Source: Opitutales bacterium
GTDB taxonomy: Bacteria > Verrucomicrobiota > Verrucomicrobiia > Opitutales > PNEW01
Reading direction: 5' to 3'
Assembly: GCA_965197745.1 (NCBI GenBank)
Contig: CBDANS010000005.1
Span: forward strand, 1 to 64,000
Length of the DNA stretch: 64,000 bases
The notes under the pieces are model-generated. The model was not told the origin of the DNA. It saw only the letters and a program-made list of their open reading frames with translations, and ran no database searches. Shown piece after piece: positions 14,809 through 59,329 of this stretch (within the stretch, counting starts at the first letter, position 1; every line of letters begins with the position of its first letter). A program made the translations under genes and the position numbers.

Positions 14809-17328
14809 ATGCTGGATACCGAAACCAAGCGCCGCATCGATACCGCCCGCGATATTCTGGTCGGCAAGGTGCCGGATCCCAAGAGCCAAGTCGAGCAGAT
14901 CACCATCGCACTGATCTACAAGTTCATGTGTGACATAGATGCCGAAAGCGAGGAGTTGGGCGGAAAACGCAGCTTCTTCGCCGGTGACTTCGCCCGCTAC
15001 GGATGGCCCAAACTAATGCGTACCGGCCTCGGCGGCCACGAGACCTTGAACCTCTATGCGGAGGCTATCACCAGGATGCCGGAGAACCCCGGGATTCCAT
15101 CGCTGTTTCGAGACATCTTCAACAACGCTTACCTACCTTATCGCGACCCGGAGACTCTACGCTCCTTTCTCAAGATCATCGACGAGTTCACCTATGATCA
15201 CTCCGAGCGTCTAGGTGACGCCTTCGAGTATCTGCTATCCGTCCTCGGCTCACAGGGCGACGCCGGGCAGTTCCGTACCCCACGTCATATCATCGCCTTT
15301 ATCGTTTCGATTGTCGACCCGAAGAAGGAAGAGACGGTGCTGGATCCCGCGTGTGGCACGGCAGGATTCCTGATTTCATCCTATAAGCACATTCTCGCGG
15401 CCAACACCGATCCTCAAGGCGTTAGCACGCTAACACCGGACGACAAGGGCCAGCTAGCGGTAAACTTCAAGGGCTACGATATTTCGCCCGACATGGTGCG
15501 TTTATCGCTGGTGAACATGTACTTGCACGGATTTACTGCCCCGCATATCTTCGAATATGACACTCTGAACAGCGAGGATCGCTGGAACGAATACGCCGAC
15601 GTGATTCTCGCCAACCCCCCGTTCATGTCGCCGAAGGGTGGCATCCGTCCTCACAATCGGTTCACGGTGAAGTCCAAACGGAGCGAGGCGCTTTTTGTCG
15701 ACTACATCGCCGAGCACCTGATGCCCTCTTCTGGCCGCTCCGGCATCATCGTTCCCGAGGGAATCATCTTCAATAGCGAAAACGCTTACAAAAATTTACG
15801 CAAAAAACTCGTCGATGATTACCTGGTCGCCATCATTTCCCTTCCAGCAGGAGTGTTCAACCCTTATTCGGGTGTTAAAACCTCCATTCTCATCCTCGAC
15901 AAGTCGCTGGCGAAGAAGACTACCCGTATTGCCTTCTTTAAGGTAGAGAGCGACGGTTTCGATCTAGGAGCCCAGCGGCGGCCGGTTGAACAGAACGACC
16001 TACCAAAGGTCGTAGCTGAGATTGGTGAATATCTGTATAGATTACGGGCTCGCGAATCCGTGGACGATTTCCATCCGATAAATGGGCTCATCGTCGAAAA
16101 AGAAAAGATCGCGGCGAATGGGGAGTATAACCTGAGTGGGGAAAAATATCGGGAAAATGGCGTGCGCTCGTCACTCTTTCCAATTGTACCTTTAGGTGAA
16201 GTAGCAGACGTCATCGCTGGACAATCACCGCCTGGAAAGTCTTATAACAATGTCGGCATTGGAACGCCGTTCTATCAGGGCAAGGTTAAATTTGGTCGAA
16301 TGTTCATCGGCGAACCTATAAAGTGGACCAACGATGCACGGAGATTTGCCGAGAGAGACGACGTTCTTATGTCCGTACGTGCTCCTGTTGGTCCTGTCAA
16401 CCTTGCTACCCAGCGGATTTGTATAGGCAGAGGTCTCGCCGCAATCAGACCTACAAAGAACCGATTGCTTACCAGTTATGCCTTTTACATTTTGCGGGGC
16501 TTAGAAGCGGAGATAATTGGCAACACAGGAGCAGCGTTTACCTCAATCAACAAGGGTGACATTAATAAACTCCAAATCCCTCTCCCGCCGCTGGAGGTAC
16601 AGAAGGAGATAGTCGCCGAGATCGAGGGTTACCAGAAGGTCATCAACGGCGCTCGCGCCGTTATCGAAAACTATAGGCCGCATGTTGTTGTCAACCCCGA
16701 GTGGCCAATGGTGAAGATCGCAGAGTTTGTCCAAGAGATAAAGGCTGGTTTTGCAAGCGGCAAATCTAGACTTGACAATGAAGGCGTGCCCCACATTCGC
16801 CCTATGAATGTGACTGATAGAGGTTATTTCACTTGGGATGGTTTGAAACGTATTAGCGAGGATGAATTTCGAGGAAGAGAGAACTATGCACTCGTCCCCG
16901 GCGATGTACTATTCAACAACACTAACAGCAAGGAGCTTGTGGGGAAGACTTGTCTCATCACCGAGAAAATAGGGGGAGGCTTTTCCAACCACATGACTCG
17001 CATTCGTGTTCAAAGCGATAAGTGCGATCCACGTTTCCTTGCTCTGAGTCTTTATACCGCTTGGCGAGGTGGAAAATTTCTTGAACGAGCAAACAAGTGG
17101 ATTGGACAAGCTGGAATTAATAACAAGTCCCTTGGGGAGTTACAAATCCCCATCCCCCCCCTTGCTACGCAGCAAGACATCATGTCTGTGCTCGAAGCCG
17201 AGCATGCCCTAGTCACAGCCAACAGCGAATTAATCGAACGTTTTGAGGAAAAGATAAAGGGCACCATCGCTCGTGTGTGGGGCGAAAATAAAGCTGCCCC
17301 GTCGGAGTCGGAGAGGAGTGAAGCATGA
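14809..17328 (+). CDS. hsdM: Type I RM methyltransferase-specificity (HsdM-HsdS) fusion
   Basis: GQFRTP, DPACGTAG, NPPF; two TRD/conserved-helix repeats (IPLPPLEVQ, IPIPPLATQ). Confidence 0.9.
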   Translation: MLDTETKRRIDTARDILVGKVPDPKSQVEQITIALIYKFMCDIDAESEELGGKRSFFAGDFARYGWPKLMRTGLGGHETLNLYAEAITRMPENPGIPSLFRDIFNNAYLPYRDPETLRSFLKIIDEFTYDHSERLGDAFEYLLSVLGSQGDAGQFRTPRHIIAFIVSIVDPKKEETVLDPACGTAGFLISSYKHILAANTDPQGVSTLTPDDKGQLAVNFKGYDISPDMVRLSLVNMYLHGFTAPHIFEYDTLNSEDRWNEYADVILANPPFMSPKGGIRPHNRFTVKSKRSEALFVDYIAEHLMPSSGRSGIIVPEGIIFNSENAYKNLRKKLVDDYLVAIISLPAGVFNPYSGVKTSILILDKSLAKKTTRIAFFKVESDGFDLGAQRRPVEQNDLPKVVAEIGEYLYRLRARESVDDFHPINGLIVEKEKIAANGEYNLSGEKYRENGVRSSLFPIVPLGEVADVIAGQSPPGKSYNNVGIGTPFYQGKVKFGRMFIGEPIKWTNDARRFAERDDVLMSVRAPVGPVNLATQRICIGRGLAAIRPTKNRLLTSYAFYILRGLEAEIIGNTGAAFTSINKGDINKLQIPLPPLEVQKEIVAEIEGYQKVINGARAVIENYRPHVVVNPEWPMVKIAEFVQEIKAGFASGKSRLDNEGVPHIRPMNVTDRGYFTWDGLKRISEDEFRGRENYALVPGDVLFNNTNSKELVGKTCLITEKIGGGFSNHMTRIRVQSDKCDPRFLALSLYTAWRGGKFLERANKWIGQAGINNKSLGELQIPIPPLATQQDIMSVLEAEHALVTANSELIERFEEKIKGTIARVWGENKAAPSESERSEA

Positions 17329-17485
17329 AAAAAGACGTGCCTTGGGTCAACCTTGCGTGCCTGGAGCATGCAAATAGGCATGAGGAACAGACAGGAATGG
17401 TCCGAAGTGTTGCCCTTACTTATGGGATCAATAACAATTGCGTGGGCCGGAGAGCGTTTTCAAGTCGTTGCAAGCAGCTTTTGTT

Positions 17486-18647
17486 GTGTCTTTAGATTTC
17501 AATCTCCTAGAACAGTTACTCCACGGAGAGGAGGGGCCTACACTCGATTTTAAGCGAGATCAGTACGCGTTTGAAGGAGCAAGCGACGACGACAAGGGTG
17601 AATTACTCAAGGACGTCCTCGCTTTTGCTAATACCGGACGTCAGACAACTGCGTACATACTGATCGGAGTGGACGAGGTCAAGGGGAGACGCAGTAAGGT
17701 CATTGGAGTAAATGCACACCTGGACGACGCCCAATTACATCAATTTGTAAACTCGAAGACCCAGCGGCCAGTCGAATTTTCATACTCACCGTTCCCCACC
17801 AATGACGGTGAAATTGGCGTCATTGAAATACCAGTTCAAGCATGCCCAATCTACCTAAAGAAAGGGTTTGGCAATCTTTACGCCAATGCCGTCTACAAGA
17901 GAGACAGTAGCAGCACGGCGGTCGCCACTCCCGATGAGATCGCGCGAATGGGTGAAATGCGAGTCTCGAGCGGCACACCCCAACTTGTTCTTGAGTGGGC
18001 GGACTTAGATAGGCGTACGGTACTTCCTTCGCCTCACTCTGTACACACATTAATTCTTAATCCACCACTCCCTGATAGCACATTTGAAGAACCTCGACCC
18101 ACCGTTAGAATGGGCCTGGCTGACTACCGGGACTACTACAGGAATGATAACTACTCTAAGGATGCTATTAACTACATTTTTGAGAGGGCTTTTTTAAAGC
18201 CTCTGGGCCTCCGGTTACGCAACTGCAGTGGGACGGTTGGGAAACGGATCCTTTTCGTCGGTTCAGTGACTAAAGCCAACGCCGATTGCGTCTGGGATTG
18301 TACCCATCAACCGAAGCGCCCATATCGTGACCGTATGGCTAAAATCTCTGCATCAATCGTCCCGCTTTGCATCACAGCTTCAAATAAGCTCAGAACCTCG
18401 CGTAAAAGAGCTCGACGACCGGTGGGAGATCACCATTGATTTCGGAGATGTGCGTCCTTGTGACGAAGTCTGGACGACCAGTGAGCTATTCATTGGATCA
18501 ATGAGCGACAGGATCACAAGACTGGAAGGCGAGCTACGGGGCGATAATATACAGCAGCCTTCCCTGTCCGCCCTAGAGATCCGTTTTGAGGTCGAGCAAA
18601 GACCAATGGAGCGAGCGGATGTCAAAAAATACTTGGATGACTGTTGA
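17486..18647 (+). pseudogene. AlbA_2/Schlafen-domain protein, frameshifted near 18360
   Basis: EGPTLDFKR, LLKDVLAFAN, ILIGVDE; C-terminus continues in ORF 18327-18647. Confidence 0.75.
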
Positions 18648-19014
18648 AACCGATATTCGCATCCCAGTCGATAGGAATGTCCCTGGCCATTGGCCGAACA
18701 GCATACTACCTCCGATCTCTCGACTAGGAGACGAGGAAGATCGATGCTCTCATCACCAAGAGCTGCGAGGCCATCCATCGATCGATAAGTCGCAATGGCA
18801 ACAGGTGAGACACCGCCCCAATAGATAGCTTGATGGTCACGCTTAAAAATGGACTGATCCATAGCAGAAGGCAGAGCGTAACTAGGCAACTGCTCTACGC
18901 ACGTCCAATCCCTTCGTCATATTACTTATCATCATTACGGTATATGAACCCAAACCACCGCAATGGATAACACCGATTTAAAGGAGACAATCGACATGAA
19001 ATGCAGTATTGAAG

Positions 19015-20241
19015 TGTATTAGTAACGATAAGATCTGACAGAAGCAAGAGAAGGGTTACTCTGTGTGGGAAGTTAAACAACAACAACAGCCCCCTAGGGG
19101 GCTGCCCCAAACAGGAGTAACCCCAATGAGAATAAACGAAAAAATGATCAGAAATAAAGTAGGATTATTAAATTTAGCTGAAGAGCCAGGCAACGTTTCA
19201 AAGGCCTGTCAGGTGATGGGCTTCAGTGGCGATACCTTTTAGCGGTATAAAGCGGCGGTCGAGGAAGGGGGAATCGAGAATCTGCTGGATAAAAGTCGCA
19301 GCCAGTCGAACCTCAAAAACCGCGTTGACGAGAGCATTGAAAAGCGGGTGGTCACGCTCGCGAAGGAAACCCGGCGCTGGGACAACAGCGGGTGGCCAAC
19401 GAACTGAGGAAAGAGGGGTTGGTGATCTCACCGGCCGGAGTGCGTTATGTGTGGATCAGCCATCAATTGCAAACCTTCCCGTTGCGGTTGAAGGCCTTGG
19501 AAAAGAAAATGGCCGAAGAAGGGTTGGTCTTAACCGAGAGACAGTTGGCGGCCCTGGAGAAGAAGAAAGAGCGTGATCAGTTGCACGGGGAGATTGAGAC
19601 CGCCCATCCCGGCTATCTGGGTGCCCAGGATACCTTCTATGTTGGCACGCTTAAAGGGGTCGACGCATCTATCAGCAAACCTTCCTCGACACTTATGCGA
19701 AAGTGGCTTACGCGAAGTTGTATACGATGAAAACCCCGCTCACCGCCGCAGAGTTGCTTAACGATCAGGTCTTGCCCTTTTTCGAGCAACACGCGATGGG
19801 ACTGTTGCGGGTGCTTACCGATCGTGGAACCGAGTATTGCCGACGACATGACAGTCACCCTTACGAGCTGTATCTGGCGATCAATAATATTGATCACACC
19901 AAAACCAAAGCGAAGCATCCCCAGACCAATGGCATCTGTGAGCGCTTCCATAAAACGGTTCTCCAGGAGTTTTATCAGGTAACCTTCCGTAAGAAGATCT
20001 ACCGTACTTTAGGGCAGTTACAAAAAGATCTCGACGAGTGGCTGTATCACTATAACCATGAACGCACTCAACAGGGTAAAATGTGCTGTGGGCCTACCCC
20101 CATGCAGACCATCCTTGAGGACAAGGTGCTTTGGACGCAAAAAGTTGATCACCTTAACCAGGACAATGAAGAACCAATAGCTAGCTGACATTTTATACTT
20201 CCTCACAGGGTAACCTGTAAAATCAAGTCGTTGCTAGTACA
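19015..20241 (+). mobile_element. IS481-family element with degraded transposase (19126-20188)
   Basis: TGT...ACA ends, imperfect 27-bp TIR, ATTGAAG duplicated on both flanks; GAQDTFYVG, LTDRGTEY, NGICERF; internal stop and frameshifts. Confidence 0.9.
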
Positions 20242-20303
20242 ATTGAAGGAGACCCTCGAGATCACGGAGATAGGTTTCGGTGCCCTGCACGCAATGCTTC
20301 GAT

Positions 20304-21620
20304 CTATGGCTCTAGACCCTTGAAACGGCCTATCAACTCTTTGAATAATGCCTCCGCCTTATTCAGAATCTCTTCCGGCACCTCCTGCGGCTCAGTTGTT
20401 GACCATGTCACCACGATCCAGCGAGCGACCTCCGGCTTCCAGCCATCTGTCAACTTGACGCTATGCCGTCCCGCGGCGCTCTCGATTTTATCCACCAGAC
20501 CGCCTTTGCTGCGATCATCCTGATTAAGACTGATTTTATTGCTAACGACATTCTTCAGCAAGGGTAGAATTGTCGCTTCACCAATGAGATCCTCAATTGT
20601 GAATTCCTCCTGCCCAAGCACCTCGTTCAACATTAACATGGCATTTTCATGGCCTGCATATAATTCCTTCATCAGTGCATCCTGCCGTGCTCTACCTGCA
20701 TCGTCACCGTATAGCAAGACAACCGGCTGCACTTCCTGCCCGAGAAACAATGACGCGATGTGTCCAACGAGCTTCGTTCCCCTGCAAGCCGTTATGTAGA
20801 TATCTTTAGCTAAATCTTGTCGCCTTAGCGCGTGACAGTGGAGATTCAGGCTGTGCAGATACAGGTAATCTGATATCCCCTTCACCAGCACATTTTTTGT
20901 GTTGGAATAGCCCGTGTACCATCGCGTAACCCGCTGCTGCTTGCAAAGGGAAGATTGTCTCCCAGTCTTTAGGCCAGCTATCGACGCTGATCATCGAATG
21001 CCCGGTGTTATCTTCCGTAACTGGACGAACACGGTGGATGTGCTTACCATCAATCAAAAACGGCGAGTGCGTGGTGTAAATCATCGGATTGTTCTCAGCC
21101 AGATTCTCGAAGAACGATATAAGCTCCTGCTGCGTCGTTGGGTGCAAGTGCAAACCCGACTCGTCGAGTAGCAGGATCGCATCCTTGTGTCCCTCATCCG
21201 ACTCCACCAGAAAGACCATTGGAATCCCTTACTGAGGCTATCCAACTCGATATCAACATCGGGCCTACGATCATCCGACACCCATATGCGGAAATATTGG
21301 GCATCCACCTGGTACCTGATCTTGTGCTGTCTTTGTCCGATCCAATGACTGAACTTCATTGAGATGTCGATCGACGCCGAATTCAGCTTCACACTCCGCA
21401 ATTCCTTGTTTTGCTGGTAGCGCTGTATCATGTCCTCTGTAACTTGCTGACCCTTTGCTCTCGCCTACGTCGCTTCCTCTTACCCTAAATTCGCGATCTC
21501 ATCAGCGGTCAACTGCACATGTTTGAACATGGCATAGATCATATGAATACGCGGGCCCTACGGATCTGCTTCAAGGGCTTCCAAAAAGCGCTGGCACTTA
21601 CGAGGGTGACGATGGCACTT
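20304..21620 (-). pseudogene. OLD-like ABC ATPase-TOPRIM nuclease remnant
   Basis: LSKGFQW, LLLDESGLHLHP, YTTHSPF, (E)GISDYLYL, GDDAG; several frameshifts and stops; no Walker A seen. Confidence 0.75.
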
Positions 21621-21639
21621 TCTCATCGGCGACGATCCG

Positions 21640-21955
21640 CGACCTGGGAACAGGGGATAAAACGGGTAATACAGGGACTTTTCCCAGTATCGGGACGGCT
21701 GCAAAAAGTATTATGGAGGGATCGGATTCGATCACACGTGATATTCTAATTCCTTTGGATACAGCACTTGGTGCCTACACCTTCAGGACCGATGTCGTCG
21801 ATTCCGCTTCAATCGCTGTCCCCAATAACAATCCCATGGTGAGTTTAACCGTTTCACCTACAGAGATCACCGACGGGGTATCGGTGAGGTTGGACGCCAT
21901 CACATCCGATAACGACAGAATGGGTGAGCGGGGCTCGTTTATACATAGTAAGTAA
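21640..21955 (+). pseudogene. Fragment of a secreted Ig/PKD-like protein
   Basis: NNNPMVSLTVSPTEITDGVSVRLDAITSDND beta-rich pattern. Confidence 0.35.
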
Positions 21956-22064
21956 GGTCTTAGCGATCGACAACAATCATCCCTATACTTACACTTACAC
22001 TTCCGTGAGAACAGGACAACACGACTTTCGAGCCTATGCCGTTGACAATGACTGGTGAACGACC

Positions 22065-22583
22065 ACTTTGGACCCCCTACTACTTTCACGGTCATTGCTG
22101 CGACTCCTGTCGTCGCGGTAGTCTCTCCAGTTCGGCGTCCGTCATTTCGCTTCGCAGTTCAGTGACCCTAGACACCGAAGTCAATCAAGAGGGTACACCC
22201 TATACGCATAGGGGGCAACGGTGCAGCCGAAATTACCGGCACCCCGCTCGCATCGAACACCAGCCCCGAGCCACAAGTTTCTCTGCCGCTTGCCGGCTGG
22301 TAACCGATGCTTACTACCGAGCGTAAGCGGCGACATCTGCCATTTTTATCGGGTGTCTCCTGCCAGGATCTCTATTCCCAGCATCTTCTCCGTCAGCATC
22401 CGGTTTAAACGTACGTTCTCTTTCATAGAGCTCCTTCAACCCCTTGGCTTGGTTGACATCAATCATCCCAATCTCTCGCTACCAGCAGTGGAAGGTCTGT
22501 TCGCTTAGGTTGTTCTCGCAGCATGCTTCCAAGATCGTTTTCCCTTTGTCCGTCCGTCCTTTTAACTCTATTAGGGGCAGGTG
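22065..22583 (-). mobile_element. Internally deleted IS3-family remnant
   Basis: Degraded orfA (EQTFHCW...AKGLKEL), interrupted AAAAATG..GTAAGC orfA/B junction, GGGGGTCCA end resembling the other IS3 copies; ends approximate. Confidence 0.6.
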
Positions 22584-22737
22584 GACGCACGGACGAATCT
22601 AAAATAAAGAGAGAAAGCGTTCGTCCGGGAAAAACCTCCTTTGAAAAAGAAACAAAAATAATAAAAGACCATAAGAATAGAGAGAGTATATTCTCTTCTT
22701 CTTATAACTGTTCATCTGCCCCACTAGCTATTCAAGC

Positions 22738-23889
22738 TCACTCTTCAAATACGTTTGGGAGAGCATTTAATGCTTTCTTCTTCGCATTCGTCCCAACATG
22801 GTTATAAATCGCAGACACCGCCGAACTTGCGTGGCCTATAACATCCCTGACCACACTTTCCGGTATGCCCGCATCTTTCATCAAAGTTGTAGCAGTATGT
22901 CGTAGGCTATGAAACGATAATTCGTTAGTCTTACGTCTTACAGATTTACCACGACTAAGCGGGTTTTTGCTTCGGGCTTTAGCTAAACCTGCACTCACAA
23001 GAATATCGTAGAATTGCTGAGATAACCCTACCACGTTCCCATGTCTTTCAGCTTTTTCGTATGCCCTTTTAAAAAGGGCCGAACTGGGTTTATCAGAAGC
23101 GGGAAGTCTCAGCAAATAATCCCTCAAGGGGTGCGCTATTGGTAAAACTATACGTCTTCCTGTCTTTGCAGTGGTGAGGGCTAATTCCTCACGCTGCAAG
23201 TCAATTGATGCCCATGTGAGGCGGGCTATATCTCCCAGTCGCTGACCTGTATACAAACCGGCAATGATGATGCCCCTCCATTCTTCATTTGCAGCGGTGA
23301 GTACTTTTTTTAATTCACTTATCGTAAAACCACGTCGTGTGGTCGATCGGACTGTCCTTTTTATAGTGGCCACACGTGCTGCCGGGTTATCCTGCATAAG
23401 CTCATCTTTCCAGGCTTGATGAAGGGCCGATCTTAATATTTTCAGGTGTTGATTGGCGGTAGCTGCGGTCAGGTCTTCTGCAACATTGTCTCGAAAATTA
23501 ACAATTTCGGTTTTTGAAAGATATGAAAGATCACGTGAAGATTTCTCGGGCCCTAAGAAGGTGAGAAACTTTTTAACCGTTCCTTGGTAGTGGAGATAGG
23601 TGCTACGTGCGTTCTCAATCTCCTTTCCTGACAACCAGGATTTAAAATAATCCTCAATACTGACCTTTAGCAAGTGTTCACCGTGAATATCCTTGTAAAT
23701 ATCAGAAAGGACACGCCTGGCCTGGCTTTCGGTCAATGTCCGCTTATAAGCTGATTCATACTGATCAGCAATTTTCTGCGCCTTCTTTCGATCCGTCTGT
23801 TTGGTGGATCTTTGACGTTGCCTGGACGTATGGTCAGTGTAACAGGCAATCCAGTATTTTGAGTTAGGAAGTTTCCGTACTGAGGCCAT
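22738..23889 (-). CDS. Tyrosine recombinase/integrase (second)
   Basis: GQRLGDI, FHSLRHT, IGH..Y; ATTACAAT twice upstream at 23892 and 23904. Confidence 0.92.
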   Translation of the reverse strand: MASVRKLPNSKYWIACYTDHTSRQRQRSTKQTDRKKAQKIADQYESAYKRTLTESQARRVLSDIYKDIHGEHLLKVSIEDYFKSWLSGKEIENARSTYLHYQGTVKKFLTFLGPEKSSRDLSYLSKTEIVNFRDNVAEDLTAATANQHLKILRSALHQAWKDELMQDNPAARVATIKRTVRSTTRRGFTISELKKVLTAANEEWRGIIIAGLYTGQRLGDIARLTWASIDLQREELALTTAKTGRRIVLPIAHPLRDYLLRLPASDKPSSALFKRAYEKAERHGNVVGLSQQFYDILVSAGLAKARSKNPLSRGKSVRRKTNELSFHSLRHTATTLMKDAGIPESVVRDVIGHASSAVSAIYNHVGTNAKKKALNALPNVFEE

Positions 23890-24488
23890 AGATTACAATC
23901 TAAATTACAATGACGTCGAGCGTCAAGGAAAACGTAGAGTTTATAAGTAGTTTAAAATCAACATAAGTTGCTTTAACATCAATAGGGTAATATAATTAAC
24001 TGTAACAATCGGTAACTTCTGGATGTTAGTCCTAAATACAATGAAGATTCAATTGCAAGTATCATTAACCAGTGCCCGAGTTCAAGAATTTGCATATATA
24101 ACTCTTAGTCTGAATTCTCAGTAGACAGCATTCTTATTTTATTTGTTTGTGACGGCTATCATCGCGGACCGCTCTGTAATCTTATGGTGCGCATCACGTT
24201 TAGCACCGACTTTGTTCGCCTGCCGTTCGATCGGGGTAAAGCCCGTTTACCTGTACAACGAGTCTCGGCCGAACAGACTACAAGACATGCTCTACGAAAT
24301 TCATCACCCACGACGAGGTAAACTAGCAAAAACCCAGCTTATCGGATCCCGTATCCCAATTGGGCTAAAAGCATAAGACCTCACCAAGATTAAGTTCTCA
24401 AGTGGCTCAGTTCCCGTGGTCTTGACCAGTGAAAGAACGTAGATAATATAAATTTGAACCTTTTAGTAATATATAGCTATTAATGCAA

Positions 24489-24763
24489 TTAATTTGGACT
24501 ACCTACTATTCCACCTATTAATTCACCAGTATATGCATCCAAAACAAGTTGTGCAGCAAAATCTGGCCCTTCTACTCCTTCAGGTATATTTATTCCAAAT
24601 GTTACAGTTTTTCTATCCCAAACACTCTTAACGTCTATCTTTATGTTTTCTTGGAGTTTCACACGGCCTTCAATTATCTTTTTAGCAAACCTTATTGCTT
24701 CTTCGTTCGAAATAAATTCCTTTTTATTCATGTCATTTTCTATTGGCGCCATTTTTTTAGATT
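24489..24763 (-). pseudogene. Hypothetical protein, probably 5'-truncated by IS3
   Basis: AT-rich ORF ending VLDAYTGELIG (PepSY-like), abuts the IS end. Confidence 0.4.
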
Positions 24764-26192
24764 TGGAGTGATCCCCAAAAATGGTGTCATTTACAGAGAG
24801 AGGTTATCGGGATAACCCGATAACCTCAATGAAAAGAAAACGATCCACAACAGAACAGATAATCGCAATACTGCGGCAAGCCGATACCGGTAAAACGGTA
24901 GAGGAAATCTGCCGAGGCAACAATCTAAGTGAACAGACCTTCTATCGCTGGGGTAAAAAGTATGGCAACTTGGAACTGGCCGATGCGAAGCGATGTAAAG
25001 AGCTGGAAAAAGAAAACACCGAGCTGAAGAAGCTGCTCGCTGATCAAATGCTCAAGAATCAGGTAATGGAGGAAACGTTGTCAAAAAAGTGGTGAGCCCA
25101 AAGCAGAAGAAGCGAGTAGTAAAAGATGCGGCTGAGAGAGGGCTGTGCTCGTTTTAGAGGGCTTGTGCCTATCTCAGCCTCAGTTGGTCAACGTACAGCC
25201 AACCGGCCCAAGCAGGCCGGTAGGAAAGCTCAGCGGTTGGCCGAGCGGATTGTAACCCTGTCCTGGGAACATCCCCGCTACGGTTACCGGCGCATCCGTG
25301 CCTTGCTGGTGAAGGAAGGCTGGACAACAAGCAGGAAGTTTATTCGGGCGGTACAACGTTCAGAAGGGCTGCAGGTAAAGCCACCGAAAAAGCGTAGACC
25401 CCGTCAAGGAGTCTCTACGGGGTCGCCTACTAAAGCAACCGGTCGCAATCACCTTTGGTCCTGGGACTTTATCCATGATCGCACAGACCATGGCGGTCCA
25501 TTAAAGATGATGACTCTGATCGATGTACCGAGGAGCTGAAAGCGACGACACTCAAGCGAAGCGAAGACATATACGCGTGAATGTCTGGATATCCGGGTAG
25601 CTCGTGAACTCACCTCATCGGATGTCCTCTCTGTGCTTAGCGAGGCCATTGAAGAGGAGGGAGCTCCCAGCTATATCCGTAGTGACAACGGCAGTGTTCC
25701 GAGGAGCGAAGTGACGACATGCGAAGCCATTCATCGCTCATCAGGTGCAGCAGTGGTTGTCCGACAAAAACATCAAGGCGATCTATATCGATCCGGGCAG
25801 TCCCTGGCTACCGAGCGAAGCGACACCTCAACGAGCCAAAGTGAGAATAACAAATGGTTTCATCGAGTCGTTTCACAACCGCTTACGCGATGTACCGAGG
25901 AACGTAGTGACGACATAGCGAAGCGCTCATGTTTGAACCGTGAAGTGTTGCTCAGCGTAGCTGAAGCCCAAGTGGTAATCGAACAATGGCGTCATAATTA
26001 CAATAATGAACATCCTCATAGTCATTTAGGCTTTAAAAGTCCACTGGAGTTTGTCAGTATCCTTTCAGATCTTGGCCGTGTTCGAGCTACGCCCTCACTT
26101 CGCCATGATCTCTCCTATACATCAATCCTAAAACCATTGATACTCGGTAACTCTCACACTTAAAAATTGGTACGAATAACGGGGTCCGATCA
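24764..26192 (+). mobile_element. IS3-family element copy 1 (orfA 24829-25095; orfB disrupted by four micro-insertions)
   Basis: TG...CA ends shared with copy 2, AAAAAAG frameshift site, WSWDF, IRSDNGS, CLNRE. Confidence 0.92.
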
Positions 26193-26194
26193 GG

Positions 26195-26479
26195 TTGGTT
26201 AACTTCGATCAAGATTTTATGCCGTCCGAACTCGAACAGCAGATCAACGGAGAACGTTCTGTGTATCTCTTCCGCTCTTATACGCAGACAAACAGCGACG
26301 TATACCTTGAGAATATCCAACTTGACCGTGTGGGTATCACCGAAGACATCATTGGACTTTGGATGCGCGGCTTGTTCCATGACGAATTCAGACTTGTCCG
26401 TGACACAACGTGGAGTGACGATCTCCGAAAATTGCTTGACTGCGTCGTCAAACTGCCTACATTTTCATCTTCAACATAG
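26195..26479 (+). pseudogene. Hypothetical gene fragment truncated by IS3
   Basis: Protein-like frame begins at the IS boundary. Confidence 0.35.
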
Positions 26480-26849
26480 CTGGGGAGACAGACGATATTC
26501 ATCTCTGCGATTACTGCGGTCATTACAGCTATCGCGGCGTTTCATTTGCAGGAAAAAAACTCAAGTGGGAGCTAAGAACTGAATTCATGGCGGAACAGGC
26601 CCTGTTGCAACATAAGAAATGATAGAAACGCAGTTTTCAAAAGATAAGCAAACGCCTCGGCGGCTTCAAAGAAGATGAACTCCGAAAGATTTTGGTGCGC
26701 GCCGGAGCTGCAAGATTTGAACACGAGGACAGTCTGGAGCTGTGGGGACTGGTTATCAGAAACAAGCTTGATCTTTGATTGAGCTACCACCGAATGAAGC
26801 TCTCGTACCTTGGCAGTTCTCTCCGCCCATTCCACAATGGCCTCCGCGC

Positions 26850-29800
26850 ATGACCCTACAAGATGCTATTTCCAGCTTCGGCCGTGAAGCTAAATCTAAG
26901 CTTGCAAACCCCAGCGCGACCGGCTCACCGGAGGACCAACTCCGCGCACCGCTGGAATCCCTCTTTGCAGACCTTGCCGCACTCTCTGGCCTCTCTGCGA
27001 GCGACGTTGTGGCCGTCGGCGAAACGTCCCTTGCCGATCTCAAGACCCGCCCGGATTACGCCATTACCCTGAAAGAAGCCCTCGTAGGGTTTGTCGAAGT
27101 CAAGGCACCCGGGAAAGAAGCCGACCCGCGTCGGTTCCAAGACTCACACGACAAGGATCAATGGGAAAAGCTTCAGACACTGCCCAACTTGATCTATACG
27201 GATGGAAATGAATTCAGTCTTTGGCGTGACGGCAAACTTTCCGGTCAGATCGTTCGTTTGAACGGCGACATTGCAACGTCGGGCAGCAAACTGGCGTCTC
27301 CAGATAGCCTCGTGTCACTCTTCGCCGATTTTTTCCAGTGGCATCCACAGGCACCCCGTTCCGTCGCACAACTCGCTGTGGTTACCGCTCGCCTCTGTCG
27401 TCTACTTCGTGAAGAGGTTGCGGAACAATTGGCGAGAGGGTCCGCGCCACTTACCAATCTTGCAACGGATTGGCGGAAGCTCCTTTTTCCCAGTGCAACT
27501 GACGAAGCATTCGCGGATGGCTACGCTCAAGCGGTCACCTTTGGTCTGCTGATGGCTCGAGCACGCAATATTTCCCTTATGGACGGCCTCAGTCGAGTGG
27601 CTCTGGAACTTCGCCAGACCAATACGCTCATCGGTTCTGCCCTTCGGCTCCTCACTGACGCCGCCGACCATGAGAAAACTCTAAAGACATCTCTCGCCAC
27701 GCTCGTGCGCGTGCTTGACGTCGTTGACTGGTCTGCGGTTAGCAAAGACAATCCGGAGGCTTGGCTGTATTTTTACGAGCACTTTCTGAGCGTCTACGAC
27801 AATGAATTGCGCAAGAAGACGGGTTCGTACTACACGCCTCCGGAAGTGGTCCGCGCCATGGTGAGGCTGGTCGACGACGCACTGCAGTCGGATCGAAGGT
27901 TCGGTATCTGGGAGGGTATCGCCTCCCCCGACGTAACCGTGGCGGACCCCGCCGCTGGAACAGGCACGTATCTGCTTGGCGTCCTTCACCGCATTGCGGA
28001 AACGACCGAAGCTGATCAGGGACCTGGGGCTGTACCTGCGGTTATAGAAGCTGCCGTATCCCGTCTCATAGGGTTTGAACTCCAATTCGGCCCCTTCGCC
28101 GTAGCACAGTTACGCATCCATGCGGAATTGCTCTCGCTCATCGACAACCGCAACGCGACACCCGCGATCCGGCTTTTTGTGACCGACACGCTTGGAAACG
28201 CGTACGCCGAAGAGGAGTATCTCCCGCAGATACTCTTGCCTATAGGCGAGTCTCGCAGACGCGCGAACGAGATCAAACGTCAAGAAAAAATTACTGTCGT
28301 CATCGGCAACCCTCCATACAAGGAAAAAACGAAAGGGCTCGGCGGCTGGATTGAGAGCGGCACAAGGGGTAGCGAGGCCACCGCACCGTTGCACGAGTGG
28401 ATGCCCCCAACGAGCTGGAAGCTTGGCGTGCACACCAAGCATCTTCGTAACCTATATATCTACTTCTGGCGCTGGGCCACCTGGAAGGTCTTCGGTGATG
28501 CCGAACCGTCAAGAATTGAGGGACGAAACCCTGACCGTAAGGGCATCGTCTGCTTTATCTCCGTTGCGGGTTTTTTGAACGGACCAGGCTTTCAAAAAAT
28601 GCGCGCAGATCTCCGCCGCGACGCAGATGAGATTTGGGTGATCGATTGTTCGCCGGAGGGGCACCAGCCAAAGGTATCCACAAGAATTTTCCAGGGTGTA
28701 CAACAAACCATCTGCATCGTCATGGCACTTAGGAAAACAAACCAAGGTTCCCCTGACCCGGCCCGAGTCTGTTACCGCGTGTTGCCGGCAGGTAACCGGA
28801 ATGGCAAGTTTAAAGCGCTAGCTGCGATCTCGCTCGACGACGACCAGTGGAACGACTGCCCCTCTGATCCCCGTGCTCCTTTCTTGCCCAAAGCCACTGG
28901 ACAATGGGCCGTATACGCCCCTCTTGCCGACCTGTTCAACTACGACGGCTCCGGTGTCATGCCAGGGCGAACTTGGATTATTGCGCCGGATCGGTCTTCG
29001 CTAGAGCAGCGATGGGAGCTGCTCCGATCCGAAGCCGATCCGGAGACGAAACAATCCCTTTTTCATCCCCATCTCATAGACGGCAAGCCGGGAGACAAGC
29101 ACGTTAACAAGCCCCTTCTACAAGGTCTATTCGGTCATGAGTATCGCTCCGTGTCTGTTGCATCCGACACCGCGGCAGTTATCTGCCCCATTCGCTACGC
29201 TTACCGCTCCTTCGATCGACAATGGATCATTCCGGACGGGCGAGTTATCAATCGGCCCAATCCAACTCTTTGGGAAAACCACTCGGCCCAACAGGTATAC
29301 ATGACCGCACTGCAGCAAAGTCCGATAACCGCCGGTCCGGGCGTCACATTCTCTGCAGCGATCCCAGACTTATGCCACTATAAGGGATCATTTGGAGGTC
29401 GTGTATTTCCTCTTTGGGCAGATAGAACAGCACAACAGCCGAACATCAAGACCGCATTACTTCAAGAGCTGGCTCAATCTCTAGACATCAAGATCAAAGC
29501 CCCGGACCTTATGGCCTACTTCGCAGCCATCGCCGCACATCCCTCATACACGACTTGCTTCCGGTCGGATCTCCTTCGGCCCGGTATACGCTTCCCAATG
29601 ACAGCTGACGCTTCACTGTTCCGGGAAGCGATAAGCATTGGGCGCGAAGTCATTTGGCTCCACTGTTTCGGAGAACGCTTCTCCGATTCCAGCGAGGGAC
29701 GGCCTAAGAAAGCTCCCCGCCTGTTATCAGAGGACGAACGCCCTGTTGTACCGAAGGCCGGCCGCATTCCAACCGAACCGGCCCGATTTGCGAACAGTAT

Positions 29801-30224
29801 CAACTATGATGCCGCCACCCGTGAACTGCACATAGGACAAGGGTTCGTCAAGAACGTCCCGAACGAAGTATGGGAGTATCAGGTATCCGGCAAACAAGTG
29901 CTCATCCAATGGTTCAGCTATCGGCGCTTTGACCGTTCCAGACCCATCATGGGTGATCGTAGAACACCGTCTCGCCTTAACAACATCAAGCCCGACGCAT
30001 GGCTCGCAGAGTACACGACGGAACTCTTGAACCTGCTCAACGTCCTCGGTCGCTTGGTCAAACTCGAACCACGTCAAGCAAATCTCCTGGACCGAATTTG
30101 TGATAGCCCTGTGTTGCACGTCGATGATCTGCACGCGAATGGAGCATTCGTCGGCACCACCAGAAGACGTCCACGCCGTGCCGATGAGCGCCAGCAAGAC
30201 TTCGTCAATGATGCTCTAGATTAG
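26850..30224 (+). CDS. Single-polypeptide restriction-modification enzyme (type IIG/ISP-like, no helicase domain)
   Basis: RPDYA...FVEVK nuclease, GSYYTP, DPAAGTG, GNPPY, YAYRSFDRQW C-terminal domain. Confidence 0.88.
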   Translation: MTLQDAISSFGREAKSKLANPSATGSPEDQLRAPLESLFADLAALSGLSASDVVAVGETSLADLKTRPDYAITLKEALVGFVEVKAPGKEADPRRFQDSHDKDQWEKLQTLPNLIYTDGNEFSLWRDGKLSGQIVRLNGDIATSGSKLASPDSLVSLFADFFQWHPQAPRSVAQLAVVTARLCRLLREEVAEQLARGSAPLTNLATDWRKLLFPSATDEAFADGYAQAVTFGLLMARARNISLMDGLSRVALELRQTNTLIGSALRLLTDAADHEKTLKTSLATLVRVLDVVDWSAVSKDNPEAWLYFYEHFLSVYDNELRKKTGSYYTPPEVVRAMVRLVDDALQSDRRFGIWEGIASPDVTVADPAAGTGTYLLGVLHRIAETTEADQGPGAVPAVIEAAVSRLIGFELQFGPFAVAQLRIHAELLSLIDNRNATPAIRLFVTDTLGNAYAEEEYLPQILLPIGESRRRANEIKRQEKITVVIGNPPYKEKTKGLGGWIESGTRGSEATAPLHEWMPPTSWKLGVHTKHLRNLYIYFWRWATWKVFGDAEPSRIEGRNPDRKGIVCFISVAGFLNGPGFQKMRADLRRDADEIWVIDCSPEGHQPKVSTRIFQGVQQTICIVMALRKTNQGSPDPARVCYRVLPAGNRNGKFKALAAISLDDDQWNDCPSDPRAPFLPKATGQWAVYAPLADLFNYDGSGVMPGRTWIIAPDRSSLEQRWELLRSEADPETKQSLFHPHLIDGKPGDKHVNKPLLQGLFGHEYRSVSVASDTAAVICPIRYAYRSFDRQWIIPDGRVINRPNPTLWENHSAQQVYMTALQQSPITAGPGVTFSAAIPDLCHYKGSFGGRVFPLWADRTAQQPNIKTALLQELAQSLDIKIKAPDLMAYFAAIAAHPSYTTCFRSDLLRPGIRFPMTADASLFREAISIGREVIWLHCFGERFSDSSEGRPKKAPRLLSEDERPVVPKAGRIPTEPARFANSINYDAATRELHIGQGFVKNVPNEVWEYQVSGKQVLIQWFSYRRFDRSRPIMGDRRTPSRLNNIKPDAWLAEYTTELLNLLNVLGRLVKLEPRQANLLDRICDSPVLHVDDLHANGAFVGTTRRRPRRADERQQDFVNDALD

Positions 30225-30254
30225 GTTGTTTCTCACCAAGATCTGCCCTCTACT

Positions 30255-30293
30255 TGTCAATCAGCATTGAATATTGACCCATTATCGGCGTTG
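30255..30293 (+). mobile_element. Probable IS21-family terminal remnant
   Basis: TGTCAATCAGCATTGAATATTGACCCATTATCGGCGTTG resembles IS21 ends; interrupted by the next IS. Confidence 0.45.
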
Positions 30294-31457
30294 ACCTGCT
30301 CCCGTTTACTGTACCAGGGCCAGTGTTAGATCCGGCAGGGCGGTAAGATCTTTGAGTATTATAATCAAGCCGTCAAGCCTCAAGTTTTTCTCTCACTTCA
30401 GACAGCGTATAAAATACCTCCGTGTTAAGAAGTTCATCGCGTAAGCGTCTATTAAAGCTTTCGATATAGCCATTTTCTACGGGTTTGCCTGGCCGGATCA
30501 AATCCATCTCGATGCCATGGCCATAAGCCCATTCATCCATTACTTTGCCTGCAAACTCGGGGCCATTATCGACGGTAATGGTTTGATGAAGTCCGATTCC
30601 TTCAGAGATTTTCGCAAGTGCTGCAGCGATTTTGCTCCCACCGACGGAGGTATCGGCCAGAAGCAGTGGGCAAGCTCGGGTATACTGATCGACCACGGTG
30701 AGAATACGGAAGGAGCGTCCGTTGGCCAGTCGATCGCTCATAAATTCCATCGACCAGCGCTCCTGGGCAGCTGAAGTCGCGGGTAGTGAGACCCCCCTTT
30801 GCGCGGCACGCTTCTTACGTTTCTTGGTGCGCACTTTCAGCCCTTCGGCCTTGTAGAGACGATAAACACGTTTCTTTCCTACCGACCAGCCTTCCCGCTT
30901 TAACAACATCGTGATTCGCCTATACTCGTAGCGTACCCGCGCGGCGGCGAGGTCACGGATGCGCATGATCAGCGTGCGTGCGTCCTTCTTCACAGGCTCG
31001 TAATTATAACTCGACCAAGACAACTGCATCAGCCTGCACACCAGGCGTTTGCTCACCTCATAGGCTTCCACTCAGCAATCACCTTCTTGCGCACAGGCTT
31101 TACAACTTTTTTGCGATTACTTCCTACAGCATGTGCTTGTCCAGACTCAGATCAGCTACCCATTTCTTCAAACTAGTGTTCTCTTCGCCAAGTTGTTTCA
31201 GCCGTATTAATTGACTGATTCCTAGGCCCGCGTCTTTACCCTTCCAATGGTGAAAGGTTTGTTCGCTCACCCTTAACTCTCGGCACCCATCGACGATTCT
31301 TCGACCGCCTTCAACCTGCCTTAGGGCATCGTTGATCGGTCCTTTATGATAGCGTTGTCCTTTGCTTTTCATTGGTTGTTCTTCCTCCAATTTTTATCAG
31401 AGTTTCCACCCATGTATGACTAATTCTTTACGGGTTCAGTTCTTCGGGTAAAGGTAA
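30292..31457 (-). mobile_element. IS3-family element, distinct lineage, degraded (orfA 31124-31372, orfB ending at premature stop 30373)
   Basis: WSMEFMSD, TVDNGPEF, NGYIESFN; ends approximate. Confidence 0.85.
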
Positions 31458-56087: not shown

Positions 56088-56164
56088 GGGGGATTAGCTC
56101 AGTTGGTTAGAGCGCTTGCTTCACACGCAAGAAGTCGGCAGTTCGAGTCTGCCATCTCCCACCA
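56088..56164 (+). tRNA. tRNA-Val (anticodon CAC)
   Basis: Cloverleaf; CTTGC-TTCACAC-GCAAG anticodon arm, GTTCGAGT T-loop, CCA. Confidence 0.96.
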
Positions 56165-56610: not shown

Positions 56611-56859
56611 TTGTCTGTGACTTACATCTACATAATCGAAAGCATATATAATCGAAAACAGCATTATGTTGGTCTTACTGATGACTTAAAATCCCGTTTA
56701 CGCGATCATAATTCGGGTAAGTCGTCACACACCGCACGATTCAAACCATGGCACCTAGTTTGCTACTTCGCGTTTGCGGAAGAAAAGACAGCAAGAGTCT
56801 TTGAAAAGTATTTAAAATCCGGATCCGGTAAGTCGTTCTTGAAACGTCATTTCATTTAA
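56611..56859 (+). CDS. Small stand-alone GIY-YIG nuclease
   Basis: YIYIIES...HYVGLT..L..RL..HNSG...KPW...FEKYLKSG. Confidence 0.9.
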   Translation: MSVTYIYIIESIYNRKQHYVGLTDDLKSRLRDHNSGKSSHTARFKPWHLVCYFAFAEEKTARVFEKYLKSGSGKSFLKRHFI

Positions 56860-57003: not shown

Positions 57004-57886
57004 TTAAAGTTTTTCCGGCGGTTCTTCAATATCTTCTTCGGGATTGGCACTTGGCACAGACACTCCCTTGGATTCCAGTTCGGCCGCGAGTTGCTCTAAT
57101 TCTGTCTCTCTTTCCTGCAGGCCTTGCGCCTTATCGAACAGCGTGTTTTCACTCGCTTCGAGAAAATCTTCCCGCTCCTTTACCATCGCTTCCATTTCCT
57201 GCATCGACTGTTCCCGGGCATCCAATTCCTCTTTTAACTTTAACAATTCGGGTTCTATATCCTTCGACATCTGTATATCGCTTGAAGCCCCTTCCTCACT
57301 TTGTTGACCTTCTTTTGCTTTCTCTAATTCGTCTCTGAGCTATTCCAGTTCAGTTTCTTTTTCCTGCAAACTCTGTGATTTATCCAGCAAAGTGTTTTCA
57401 CTTGTTTCCAAAAATTCCTCTTTTTCCTTTAAAGCATTTTCGCGCTCATCAAATTCAGCCTGAAGCTGCTGCAATGCCTTTTCCGTTCCCTCTTCCATTT
57501 TCCCTTCTTCCTGCATGCTGCTTTGTTGTGATCCAAGGAGCTTTTCTCGTGCCGTTAAAAGGGCCTGGGATTCTCGTAAATTCATCTCGCGGGCCAAGAG
57601 CAAAGCTTCATTCTCTTTCAATGTTCTTTCGCCATCTTCGAGGGCTGCTTGAGATTCCTGTAATGACCGCTCACGTTCATCCAAATGGACTTCTTTTTCC
57701 TGTAAAGATTTCTCCCGTTCGTCTATTTCAGTACGGAATTTTTCTTCATGACTCTCTTTGGATTGCTTTGTTCTGGAGAGGATGGAATCTATGCTCATTC
57801 CCCCCTGACTCTGAACAGCTCCGGGACTTCCCGCTTCTCCGGGACTTACCGCTTCTCCGGGACGTCTGAGGCTCAATTGAGGGTAT
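57004..57886 (-). pseudogene. Acidic coiled-coil protein, IS-truncated at 5', in-frame TAG at 57340-57342
   Basis: Two FLE.SENTL.DK.Q.LQE.ETELE repeats in one frame; 18-bp SPGEA tandem repeat near 57820-57863. Confidence 0.7.
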
Positions 57887-59236
57887 TGATTGGACCCCGT
57901 TTTTCGTACCAATTATTAAGTGAGAGAGTTCCCGGGTATTAATGGTTTTAGGATTGATGTATATGAGAGATCTTGGCGAAGTGAGGGCGTAGCCCGAACG
58001 CGGCCAAGATCTGAAAGGAATGTGACAAACTCTTGTGGGCTTTTAAAGCCTAAACGACTGTGGGGATGATCATGGTTATAGGTCTGGCGCCATTGTTCGA
58101 TTACAACTTGTGCTTCAGCCACGCTGAGCAACACTTCACGGTTCAAACACTCATCGCGTAAGCGGTTGTGAAACGACTCGATGAAACCGTTTTGCCAGGG
58201 ACTGCCCGGATCGATATATATCGCCTTGATCTTTTTGTCGGACAACGACTGCTGCACTTGATGAGCAATGAATGGCTTCGCATGTCGTCGCTTCGCTCCT
58301 CGGAACACTGCCGTTGTCACTACGGATATAGCTGGGAGCTCCCTCCTTTTCAATGGCCTCGCTAAGCACAGAGAGGACATCCGATGAGGGGAGTTCACGA
58401 GCGACCCGGATATCCAGACATTCACGCGTATATGTCTTCGCTTCGCTTGAGTGTCGTCGCTTTCAGCTCCTCGGTACATCGATCAGAGTCATCATCTTTA
58501 ATGGACCGCCATGGTCTGTGCGATCATGGACAAAGTCCCAGGACCAAAGGTGATTGCGACCGGTTGCTTTAGTAGGCGACCCCGTAGAGACCCCTTGACG
58601 GTGTCTACGCTTTTTAGGTGGCTTTACCTGCAACCCTTCTGAACGTCGTACCGCCTGAACAAACTTCCTGTTTGTTGTCCAGCCTTCCTTTACGAGCAAG
58701 GCACGGATGCGCCGGTAACCGTAGCAGGGATGTTCCCAGGACAGGGTTATAATCCGCTCGGCCAACCGCTGAGCTTTCTTACTGGCCTGCTTGGGCTGGT
58801 AGCTGAAAGTTGACCAACTGAGGCTGAGGTAGGAACAAGCCCTTCGCAACGAGCACAGCCCTCTCTCAGCCGCATCTTTTACTACTCGCTTCTTCTGCTT
58901 GGGGCTCACCACTTTTTTGACAGCGTTTCCTCCATTACCTGATTCTTAAGCATTTGATCAGCGAGCATCTTCTTCAACTCGGTGTTTTCTTTTTCCAGCT
59001 CTTTAAATCGCTTCGCATCGGCTAGTTCCAAATTGCCATACTTTTTACCCCAGCGATAGAAGGTCTGTTCACTCACGTTGTTGCCTCGGCAGATTTCCTC
59101 TACCGTTTTTCCGGTATCGGCTTGCCGCAGTATTGCGATGATCTGTTCTGTTGTGTATCTTTTTCTTTTCATGAGGTTATCTGTTTATCCCGATAACCTC
59201 TCTCTGTTAATGATACCATTTTTGGGGGTCACTCCA
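57887..59236 (-). mobile_element. IS3-family element copy 2 (orfA 58906-59172; orfB disrupted by two micro-insertions)
   Basis: Closely related to 24764-26192, same ends, inverted orientation. Confidence 0.92.
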
Positions 59237-59329
59237 GGGGTGATCCTGTTAAAAGGACTTGCGCAAATCGTTTGCCAGCGTGTTCGTGAAGCAAATTCAA
59301 CCCTTTCAGAATTTCTGGAACCCATTTAA
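59237..59329 (+). pseudogene. 3' fragment of a cNMP-binding protein paralog
   Basis: VREANSTLSEFLEPI* versus VREANASLADFLEPI* in the next gene. Confidence 0.8.

Follow-up and report, generated by a model that had tools for sequence, protein, structure and literature searches.

Short hairpin elements of 23–44 bases occupy IS3 transposase genes and other repeats in an Opitutales bacterium

The window analysed here, a stretch of 64,000 nucleotides, is C5:1–64000 of the 4.45-Mb, seven-contig assembly of an Opitutales bacterium (genome label G000), and our subject is a set of very short inserts in the transposase gene of an IS3-family insertion sequence (IS) that we call IS-A. Copy 1 of IS-A (24764–26192, + strand) has the termini TGGAGTGATCCC...GGGGTCCGATCA, and its open reading frame (ORF) pieces match the Pfam families HTH_Tnp_1, HTH_21 and rve_3. 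Copy 2 (57887–59236, − strand) belongs to a burst of about 10 near-identical IS-A copies. An earlier note on this DNA had described four related inserts in orfB of copy 1, at 25526–25568, 25697–25728, 25809–25851 and 25893–25928, the first two of them shared with copy 2, which was held to be empty at the other two sites. Alignment of copy 1 (24760–26200, +) against copy 2 (57880–59240, −) bears out these positions and the shared inserts, and it shows sites 3 and 4 of copy 2 as gaps of 42 and 35 columns. With F for a filled and e for an empty site, copy 1 thus reads FFFF and copy 2 FFee.

Counting a terminal A whose status is discussed below, ins1 of copy 1 lies at 25526–25569 (+, 43 nt plus A) and takes the place of AA in the GAA codon of the IDEYTRE motif, with a net gain of 42 nt and an in-frame TGA. 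The second insert, ins2 (25697–25729, +, 32 nt plus A), stands for AR in the GAR codon of DNGSEF (net +31, a +1 frameshift). At 25809–25852 (+, 43 nt plus A), ins3 substitutes for AA in the CAA codon of PWQNGF and leaves the frame open (net +42), and ins4 (25893–25929, +, 36 nt plus A) for AG in the GAG codon of RDECLN (net +35, a +2 shift with an in-frame TAG). Given net sizes of +42, +31, +42 and +35, two of the inserts, ins2 and ins4, shift the frame. In copy 2, ins1 (58433–58476, −) is identical to that of copy 1 (0/43 differences) and ins2 (58273–58305, −) has one difference (1/32), and the empty sites 3 and 4 read CTGGC-AA-AACGG (58192–58193, −) and GATG-AG-TGTTTG (58150–58151, −). The inserts are real and do not stem from assembly, as contigs of four public runs carry ins1, ins2 or ins4.

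Comparison of filled and empty alleles defines the borders. The empty alleles read GATG-AA-TAT at site 1, GTG-AG/AA-TTC at site 2, TGGC-AA-AAC at site 3 and GATG-AG-TGT at site 4, and the right border of every filled allele is ...C-A followed by the right flank. AG is found at site 4 in 26/27 empty copies and at site 2 in 2/3 empties of this genome and 17/17 of those in relatives; the printed empty forms of a second IS3 element, IS-B, also have AG. In the contigs of run X19, the two letters at 58150–58151 are exchanged for the 37 letters of ins4. Filled alleles carry A where most empties carry AG, which is most simply read as an element that ends in this A and takes the place of a dinucleotide, A-R. 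The earlier note had each insert replace a single base; the inserts are better described as elements of 44, 33, 44 and 37 nt that include the next A and replace A-R. Its observation that terminal inverted repeats (TIRs) and target duplications are missing holds.

The preferred target is S^AR, mostly S^AAT. Insert-free IS-A contains TGAAT four times in sense and once in antisense orientation, and three of the four sense sites are filled, in line with the TGAAT target noted earlier at three of the four sites; the target at site 3 is GCAAA. In frame, TGAAT is read as xxT-GAA-Txx, coding IDEYTRE, DNGSEF and RDEC(L). The hits in conserved motifs can therefore be a by-product of target choice and do not require aiming. 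The broken frames fit the idea that the inserts parasitise or inactivate IS3. Aiming at transposase motifs is unnecessary, since specificity for TGAAT is enough.

By eye, the earlier note had seen no inserts outside IS3 DNA, which proved wrong. A loosened version of the pattern proposed for them gave 283 matches in the genome against 42–68 in three shuffles, and these sort into 96 simple elements, 70 copies of ins2, 30 of ins1, 13 of ins4, 8 of ins3, 3 in duplicates of tRNA ends and 63 others, the last about the chance level. None of the 96 simple elements, of which the window has one (22315–22339), sits at any of the four IS3 sites, and about 120 copies of the family are found in IS3-family genes. 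Thus, a family of 23–44-base hairpin elements, which we named T elements, extends through the genome, and the IS3 inserts are its long members with two hairpins. The common plan of T elements is T(A/T)CCGA, a variable hairpin, GACA, a short tail and CA. The hairpin has a co-varying stem and a loop that is usually G-N-A, bracketed by GA/GA. The tail is TCTTC or similar in the simple form and a second mini-hairpin, GCGAAGC, in the IS3 forms. The 5' module of the IS3 inserts reads CCGA-G-GA-(2-bp stem with GNA-type loop)-GA-C-GACA, with the GC/GC stem changed to AC/GT in ins4.

The 96 simple copies represent 89 distinct contexts. At least two Watson-Crick pairs close the stretch between TWCCGA and GACA in 75/89 of them, against 9/89 expected from shuffles. 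They comprise 59 distinct stems of 2–7 bp, with loops mostly of 3 nt (GCA, GAA, AAA or GTA). C or G precedes the element in 80 of the 89, and A ends it in 86. A strict pattern found 57 copies in this genome, 100 and 104 in two others of its family, 37 and 27 in genomes of two other families and 0–5 in the remaining 116 Opitutales genomes of the 121 sampled, with 0–2 for the reversed control. Furthermore, when contigs were scanned with the simple pattern, only Opitutales records had many matches among those listed, and the single matches listed from unrelated phyla were at about the estimated chance level (about 65). The T family thus appears to be confined to a few lineages.

One and the same variant, such as that with stem GGACGAAGTCC, occurs in unrelated contexts, and both filled and empty alleles were seen in five repeat or IS contexts. 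The simple elements lie in contexts of five kinds: repeat H (...GC^AATCCAGG), heptamer arrays, repeat K, whose filled copies have one A fewer than the empty ones, the A-run frameshift region of IS-B, where AC-AG-TTTT becomes AC-(25 nt)-TTTT, and the T-loop (TTCG^AATCC) of partial duplicates of tRNA 3' ends downstream of tRNA-Gln and tRNA-Asn. The simple one-hairpin element of the window, TACCGAGCGTAAGCGGCGACATCTGCCA (22315–22339, +), is of the IS-B kind: it lies within an IS-B remnant at the site AC-AG-TTTT and adjoins the A-run frameshift signal. The duplicated tRNA-Gln and tRNA-Asn ends (C5:236500–236620 and C6:355520–355700 of G000) harbour a two-hairpin T element each, and the real tRNA genes are untouched. 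A genome of another Opitutales family (G012, loci L144–L146) has the T element TACCGAGTTGAAAACGACATC within a repeat of another kind, about 70 nt long, and here too CGG precedes it and AAT follows. In the window, a 7-nt unit (AGGATGC and variants) forms a tandem array at 2508–2647, for which the repeat tool gave a spacing of 14 nt.

Simple elements are not found in host ORFs: at least 80 open codons extend on both sides in 2/96 cases, both apparently chance matches. A search for genes bounded by two T elements returned ordinary metabolic genes only. RNA and DNA folds of the four inserts were no better than those of shuffles (z from +1.6 to −0.95), with an energy model that ignores sheared G-A pairs and GNA mini-hairpins. 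An Rfam scan of 24000–27000 and of two Ssn loci (see below) gave nothing relevant at E values up to 1, a snoRNA hit at E 0.65 being at chance level. Literature searches with the 16-nt insert core as a word, and on cyanobacterial small dispersed repeats with the heptamer, had no match, and the titles and abstract openings of the GIY-YIG papers listed mention nothing on these inserts.

To follow the inserts among IS copies, the 37 full IS-A copies of this genome were aligned. Occupancy of sites 1 to 4 is FFee in 24 copies, FFFF in five, eFFe in three, eeFF in three, and eFeF and FFe? in one each. Counted by site, ins1 is present in 30/37 and absent from 7/37, ins2 is present in 34/37 and absent from 3/37, and ins3 and ins4 are found in 11/37 and 9/37 copies, respectively. 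The IS-A copies of two relatives show the patterns Feee, eFee, eeeF, eFFe, FFFe and FFee, plus one 5'-truncated copy in which all sites are empty. Site occupancy therefore assorts independently among IS copies in three genomes, including copies with a single insert. Each site always holds its own variant, in about 120 copies and three genomes. Between two recently expanded clades, ins1 and ins2 together show 0/75 differences as opposed to 135/1204 elsewhere; the 80-nt flanks of ins1 show 10 and 19 differences (12–24%), the nearest 10–11 nt away. With up to three mismatches, ins2 was found in 73 copies here, in 12 and 14 copies in two genomes of a sister genus and in none of the other 118 Opitutales genomes. 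Exact ins2 has no match in the JGI metagenome contigs or plasmids. As a separate observation, CGTAGTGAC in ins4 (25903–25911) equals a 9-nt stretch in the flank to the left of site 2 (25676–25684), a borderline chance match given 32 comparisons. A relative (G060, L107–L129) harbours a burst of about 30 near-identical IS-A copies with ins1 and a fifth T-like insert, which lies in orfA and adds a net 27 nt with an in-frame TGA.

The same inserts cross between IS families. IS-B, with 40 full copies here, has about 48–50% protein identity to IS-A; tblastn was used only for finding its copies, as its continuity flags are unreliable for in-frame inserts. The 32-mer of ins2 occurs at the DNGSEF motif of IS-B in at least 31 of the 34 rows printed, and three copies are empty. 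Around ins2, IS-A and IS-B have about 20 nt in common on the left and 8 nt on the right, and the adjoining 5 nt differ. Judging from these alignments, the inserts are probably younger than the IS lineages and appear to cross IS families without co-converted flanks. Mosaic elements with two-family joins were also identified. Two in genome G032 (L093 and L099) are IS-B/IS-A chimeras joined exactly at ins2, and a third mosaic is found at C7:1673279–1674707 of G000. In one copy, an IS-B-like module separates ins2 from ins3. In addition, about 250 nt to the right of ins2 are nearly identical between two clades, and this identity tract begins at ins2. These features suggest that shared inserts act as recombination joints between diverged IS families.

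The hit copies have persisted. When each insert was swapped for A in silico, orfB was open over 263 codons in five of six diverged lineages, with ratios of nonsynonymous to synonymous substitution rates (dN/dS) of 0.14–0.36 and dS up to 0.49. Two FFee clades of 14 and 9 aligned copies have diverged by 1% and 0.6%, and 4-bp target duplications bound many of the FFee copies at separate loci, which shows that copies with ins1 and ins2 did transpose. The earlier note had suggested testing for removal at the RNA level, for which the contigs give no evidence: RNA-library contigs span ins1 and ins2 unspliced (records 21 and 22 of run X19, record 26 of run X20). The empty allele found once at site 2 in X19 has AG and most likely stems from the DNA of another strain. 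In DNA-run contigs (X1, X10), no joint skipping ins1 or ins2 was found; the four public runs all consist of contigs, beyond whose reach rare joined forms lie. We favour mobilisation of the broken copies in trans together with recent arrival of the inserts, which would be why the frames are intact after in silico removal.

Two enzyme families are candidates for moving T elements. Repeat H (TGTCATTGC...GCAATCCAG), which reads (T)GTC-ATTGC...GCAAT-CCAGG, is present in inverted orientation on both sides of a gene for a 97-aa GIY-YIG protein at four loci of this genome (C7:1541900–1542400, C7:1545560–1545990, C7:483560–483990 and C6:787850–788260). The same H-gene-H layout was found at 5/5 loci examined in four other genomes, and PF01541 is the sole Pfam match of the 97-aa ORF, which spans C7:1541992–1542282 at the first of the loci in G000. 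In the excerpted text of Chenal et al. (2025, PMC11893778), Ssn proteins are single-domain GIY-YIG nucleases of about 94 aa that bind a hairpin repeat (NTS) as single-stranded DNA (ssDNA) only and cut a few nucleotides upstream of it, with the layout NTS-ssnA-NTS and the NTS consensus CGTCATT...AATCYRG. As layout and repeat consensus fit this description, H and the 97-aa gene very likely form a member of the known Ssn/SRM system. T elements nest in H and have its inner module, CGAG-GA-GCGAAGC-GA-CGA. Ssn homologues were detected in 8/121 Opitutales genomes, including four of the five T-rich ones, of which three are close kin. In two of the four Ssn-type units a T element lies inside one arm, and one gene copy has stop codons.

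The other candidate is a RAYT-like Y1 transposase gene, present in 46/121 genomes including all five that are T-rich. The Y1_Tnp gene of G000 (C6:163149–163742, L001) is split by a frameshift into frames of 198 and 171 aa. Its counterpart in G032 is 93% identical and open over 347 aa, and half an H repeat abuts its start.

A small GIY-YIG gene near copy 2 had been proposed as a possible enzyme. This gene (56623–56832, +), with a 92-aa open frame, belongs to another subfamily than the Ssn-type genes and has no flanking T elements; what survives of the proposal is that a different, Ssn-type GIY-YIG family is tied indirectly to the elements. It follows soon after tRNA-Val (56088–56164) and is flanked by direct copies of a hairpin repeat of 87–134 nt (56170, 56353 and 56866; also 48171). 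Gene and repeat may represent a second nuclease-repeat pair of this other subfamily.

Taking these data together, with a probability of roughly 0.6 the inserts are non-autonomous micro-elements of a family found in few lineages, which move and colonise sites in IS3 elements. That they are micro-elements, as first suggested in the earlier note, agrees with the finding of the same ends and a co-varying hairpin in unrelated contexts, always after C/G and with A-R lost. Insertion occurs in one orientation after C or G, with the next two bases, A-R, replaced and no duplication. Since the ends are strand-specific and the hairpin structure is conserved, we infer that the elements would move as ssDNA, cut and rejoined by an enzyme acting in trans. 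This might be an Ssn-type GIY-YIG ssDNA nuclease together with host repair, or a RAYT-like Y1 transposase. Each IS3 site would have been colonised by one variant, which would then have passed, without flanking DNA, from one IS copy to another and across IS3 families, and copies with a broken orfB would multiply, most simply via transposase supplied in trans.

Several observations weigh against this interpretation. Small GIY-YIG genes are missing from the fifth T-rich genome, and a RAYT-like gene occurs in 41 further genomes that hold few T elements or none. In this genome the only Y1_Tnp gene has no T element next to it, and just one of six such loci in G038 has one nearby. The short target does not explain the rule of one variant per site, as sites 1 and 4 are both CGATG^AAT; neither can pairing or identity between an insert and its own flanks, for which we found nothing beyond non-cognate controls. 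Elements inside H use a site variant with one extra base (59 CA[ACT]TCCAG versus 3 CATCCAG). There is no replication-strand bias (19 versus 19 in the G>C part of the largest contig, C7), although nesting in other mobile repeats could blur such a bias. Lastly, each of the 37 full IS-A copies has at least two inserts and none is insert-free, and nevertheless 25 copies with ins1 and ins2 are only 0.6–1% diverged and carry 4-bp duplications.

Next to active colonisation, the account that survives best, which we still regard as unlikely, is that each IS3 insert arose once and spread passively by transposition of the IS, descent and recombination or gene conversion, the inserts being fossil scars that are immobile now. 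The strict assignment of one variant to each site over some 120 copies in three genomes is what this would predict, and recombination is evident in the ins2 chimeras, the identity tract of about 250 nt and the IS-B-like module. Nevertheless, ins1 forms an isolated 43-nt block of identity, the nearest differences lying 10–11 nt off each side, and the homology between IS-A and IS-B at ins2 (about 20 + 8 nt) is too short for RecA-type exchange and shows no co-conversion.

It is more doubtful still that the inserts can be removed, by DNA excision resembling that of introns or of the internal eliminated sequences (IES) of ciliates, by removal from RNA or by translational bypass, and thereby throttle IS activity. 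The open orfB after in silico removal in five of six lineages, with its dN/dS of 0.14–0.36, would fit, as would the fact that all 37 copies are hit and yet clades of 14 and 9 expanded with 4-bp duplications. So would the burst of about 30 copies with ins1 and the fifth insert in a relative, and the much stronger conservation of the inserts than of the surrounding DNA. Against this, the RNA-library contigs are unspliced across ins1 and ins2, and the AG of the empty allele in X19 is unobtainable by simple excision of the filled allele. No Rfam match was found, and the folds are not better than those of shuffles. Host genes contain no simple elements, which would be expected of harmful insertions, and rescue by translation would need readthrough, +1 and −1 shifts at different inserts. 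Recent arrival also accounts for the intact frames. The specific version in which the inserts are conditional, precisely removable spacers that hold every IS3 copy off until excised or skipped is no more probable. If true, it would explain the 37/37 insert-bearing copies, the purifying selection and the continued bursts, and the small elements, moved by an Ssn-like ssDNA nuclease, would form a new layer of control over transposons or of hyper-parasitism on them.

Deliberate silencing of IS3 transposase genes by a host defence process is very improbable: all 37 IS-A and most IS-B copies are indeed hit, within conserved-motif DNA of two IS3 families, but some 96 related elements follow the same target rule in non-IS DNA, the scarcity of TGAAT accounts for the motif hits, the hit copies still multiplied and no dedicated gene was found.

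We then compared T elements with known systems. With Ssn/SRM they have in common the inner module of H, and both are strand-specific hairpins. As SRM/NTS repeats, however, they were rejected: they lack the ATT...AAT arms and the CYRG tail, their tail is TCGG(T/A)A, and TGTC is found on the reverse strand only. Unlike NTS, T elements do not as such flank a nuclease gene. The excerpted description of Ssn contains neither gene insertion with loss of two bases nor T-like elements (PMC11893778), and Ssn is a hydrolytic nuclease without known joining activity.

The REP/REPIN-RAYT systems are likewise based on short hairpin repeats with an unpaired tag, as far as the excerpts of Bertels and Rainey (2011, PMC3116915) and PMC3733652 describe them, and the reverse strand of T begins with TGTC, a stated variant of the CGTC tag (Di Nocera et al. 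2013, PMC3733652). The same excerpt reports that REPs can lie in ORFs, with most intragenic GTAG repeats in Opitutus terrae, and that CGTC families have 8–9 bp stems starting from A-T pairs, loops of 4–5 nt and a CCA tail. With stems of 2–7 bp and mostly 3-nt G-N-A loops, T elements do not belong to CGTC-tagged REP families 1–4, nor are they part of a REPtron (a RAYT gene flanked by cognate REPs), since T elements do not flank the RAYT-like gene. For REPs, neither a replacement of target bases nor the occupation of homologous sites in transposase genes is known. Rickettsia palindromic elements (RPE) are small palindromes within protein-coding genes, according to their brief citation in PMC3733652; they are longer, in frame and translated, in contrast with the present inserts, two of which shift the frame and two of which carry stops.

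As miniature inverted-repeat transposable elements (MITEs) mobilised by DDE transposases T elements were rejected, because TWCCGA at one end and ...CA at the other do not form inverted repeats and 2 nt of the target are lost. IS200/IS605 elements transpose as ssDNA, inserting 3' of a fixed tetra- or pentanucleotide without loss of target bases and with a lagging-strand bias. T elements resemble them in having no TIR and no duplication, in strand-specific insertion beside a short motif and in their hairpins, which are subterminal in IS200/IS605; nevertheless, the loss of A-R and the 19 versus 19 orientation speak against a non-autonomous element of this type. At the level of assembled contigs, a self-splicing or enzyme-spliced intron was rejected on the lack of Rfam hits and the unspliced RNA-library contigs. 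Translational bypass elements (T4 gene 60, yeast mitochondrial byps) restore the frame with matching take-off and landing codons; here, the codons before the sites (GAT, AGT, TGG and GAT) differ, by eye, from the last in-frame codons (ACA, CCA, ACA and TCA).

The small dispersed repeats (SDR) of Nostoc, the subject of work by Elhai and colleagues in Genome Res in 2008, are reportedly mobile repeats of 21–27 nt whose structure is kept by compensatory changes, and they are said to nest within other repeats and to occur inside heptamer tandem arrays. By this description, T elements have SDR-like traits, namely a size of about 21–27 nt, compensatory stems, nesting and an occurrence in heptamer arrays, but phylum and sequence differ. 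The SDR work is not known to concern transposase genes. Thus, T elements fail the defining features of every testable, sequence-defined family and behave like the general class of small hairpin repeats (REP/SRM/SDR). New features are the exchange of two target bases for the element, the settling of site-specific variants, unchanged as their hosts diverge, at homologous codons of two IS3 families, the probable service of T inserts as recombination joints, and the multiplication of ‘broken’ IS copies.

Around copy 1, the window harbours a defence and integration island (14809–31071). Its genes code for type I and type ISP restriction-modification systems, a Schlafen/AlbA_2 protein, an AbiEii-like AAA fragment and a tyrosine integrase (22738–23889), and it includes more IS3 remnants.

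If T elements are mobile as proposed, with their 23–44 nt they would lie at the lower size limit for mobile DNA, and the clean filled and empty alleles, the target S^AR and the two-base swap constrain the chemistry of the mobilisation route. Those in transposase genes would be parasites of parasites, whose portable homology would reshuffle IS modules. The findings also provide a link to the Ssn/SRM system, which was reported in 2025. Should nucleases of the Ssn type move or process these hairpins, this would give the Ssn family a function in mobile DNA.

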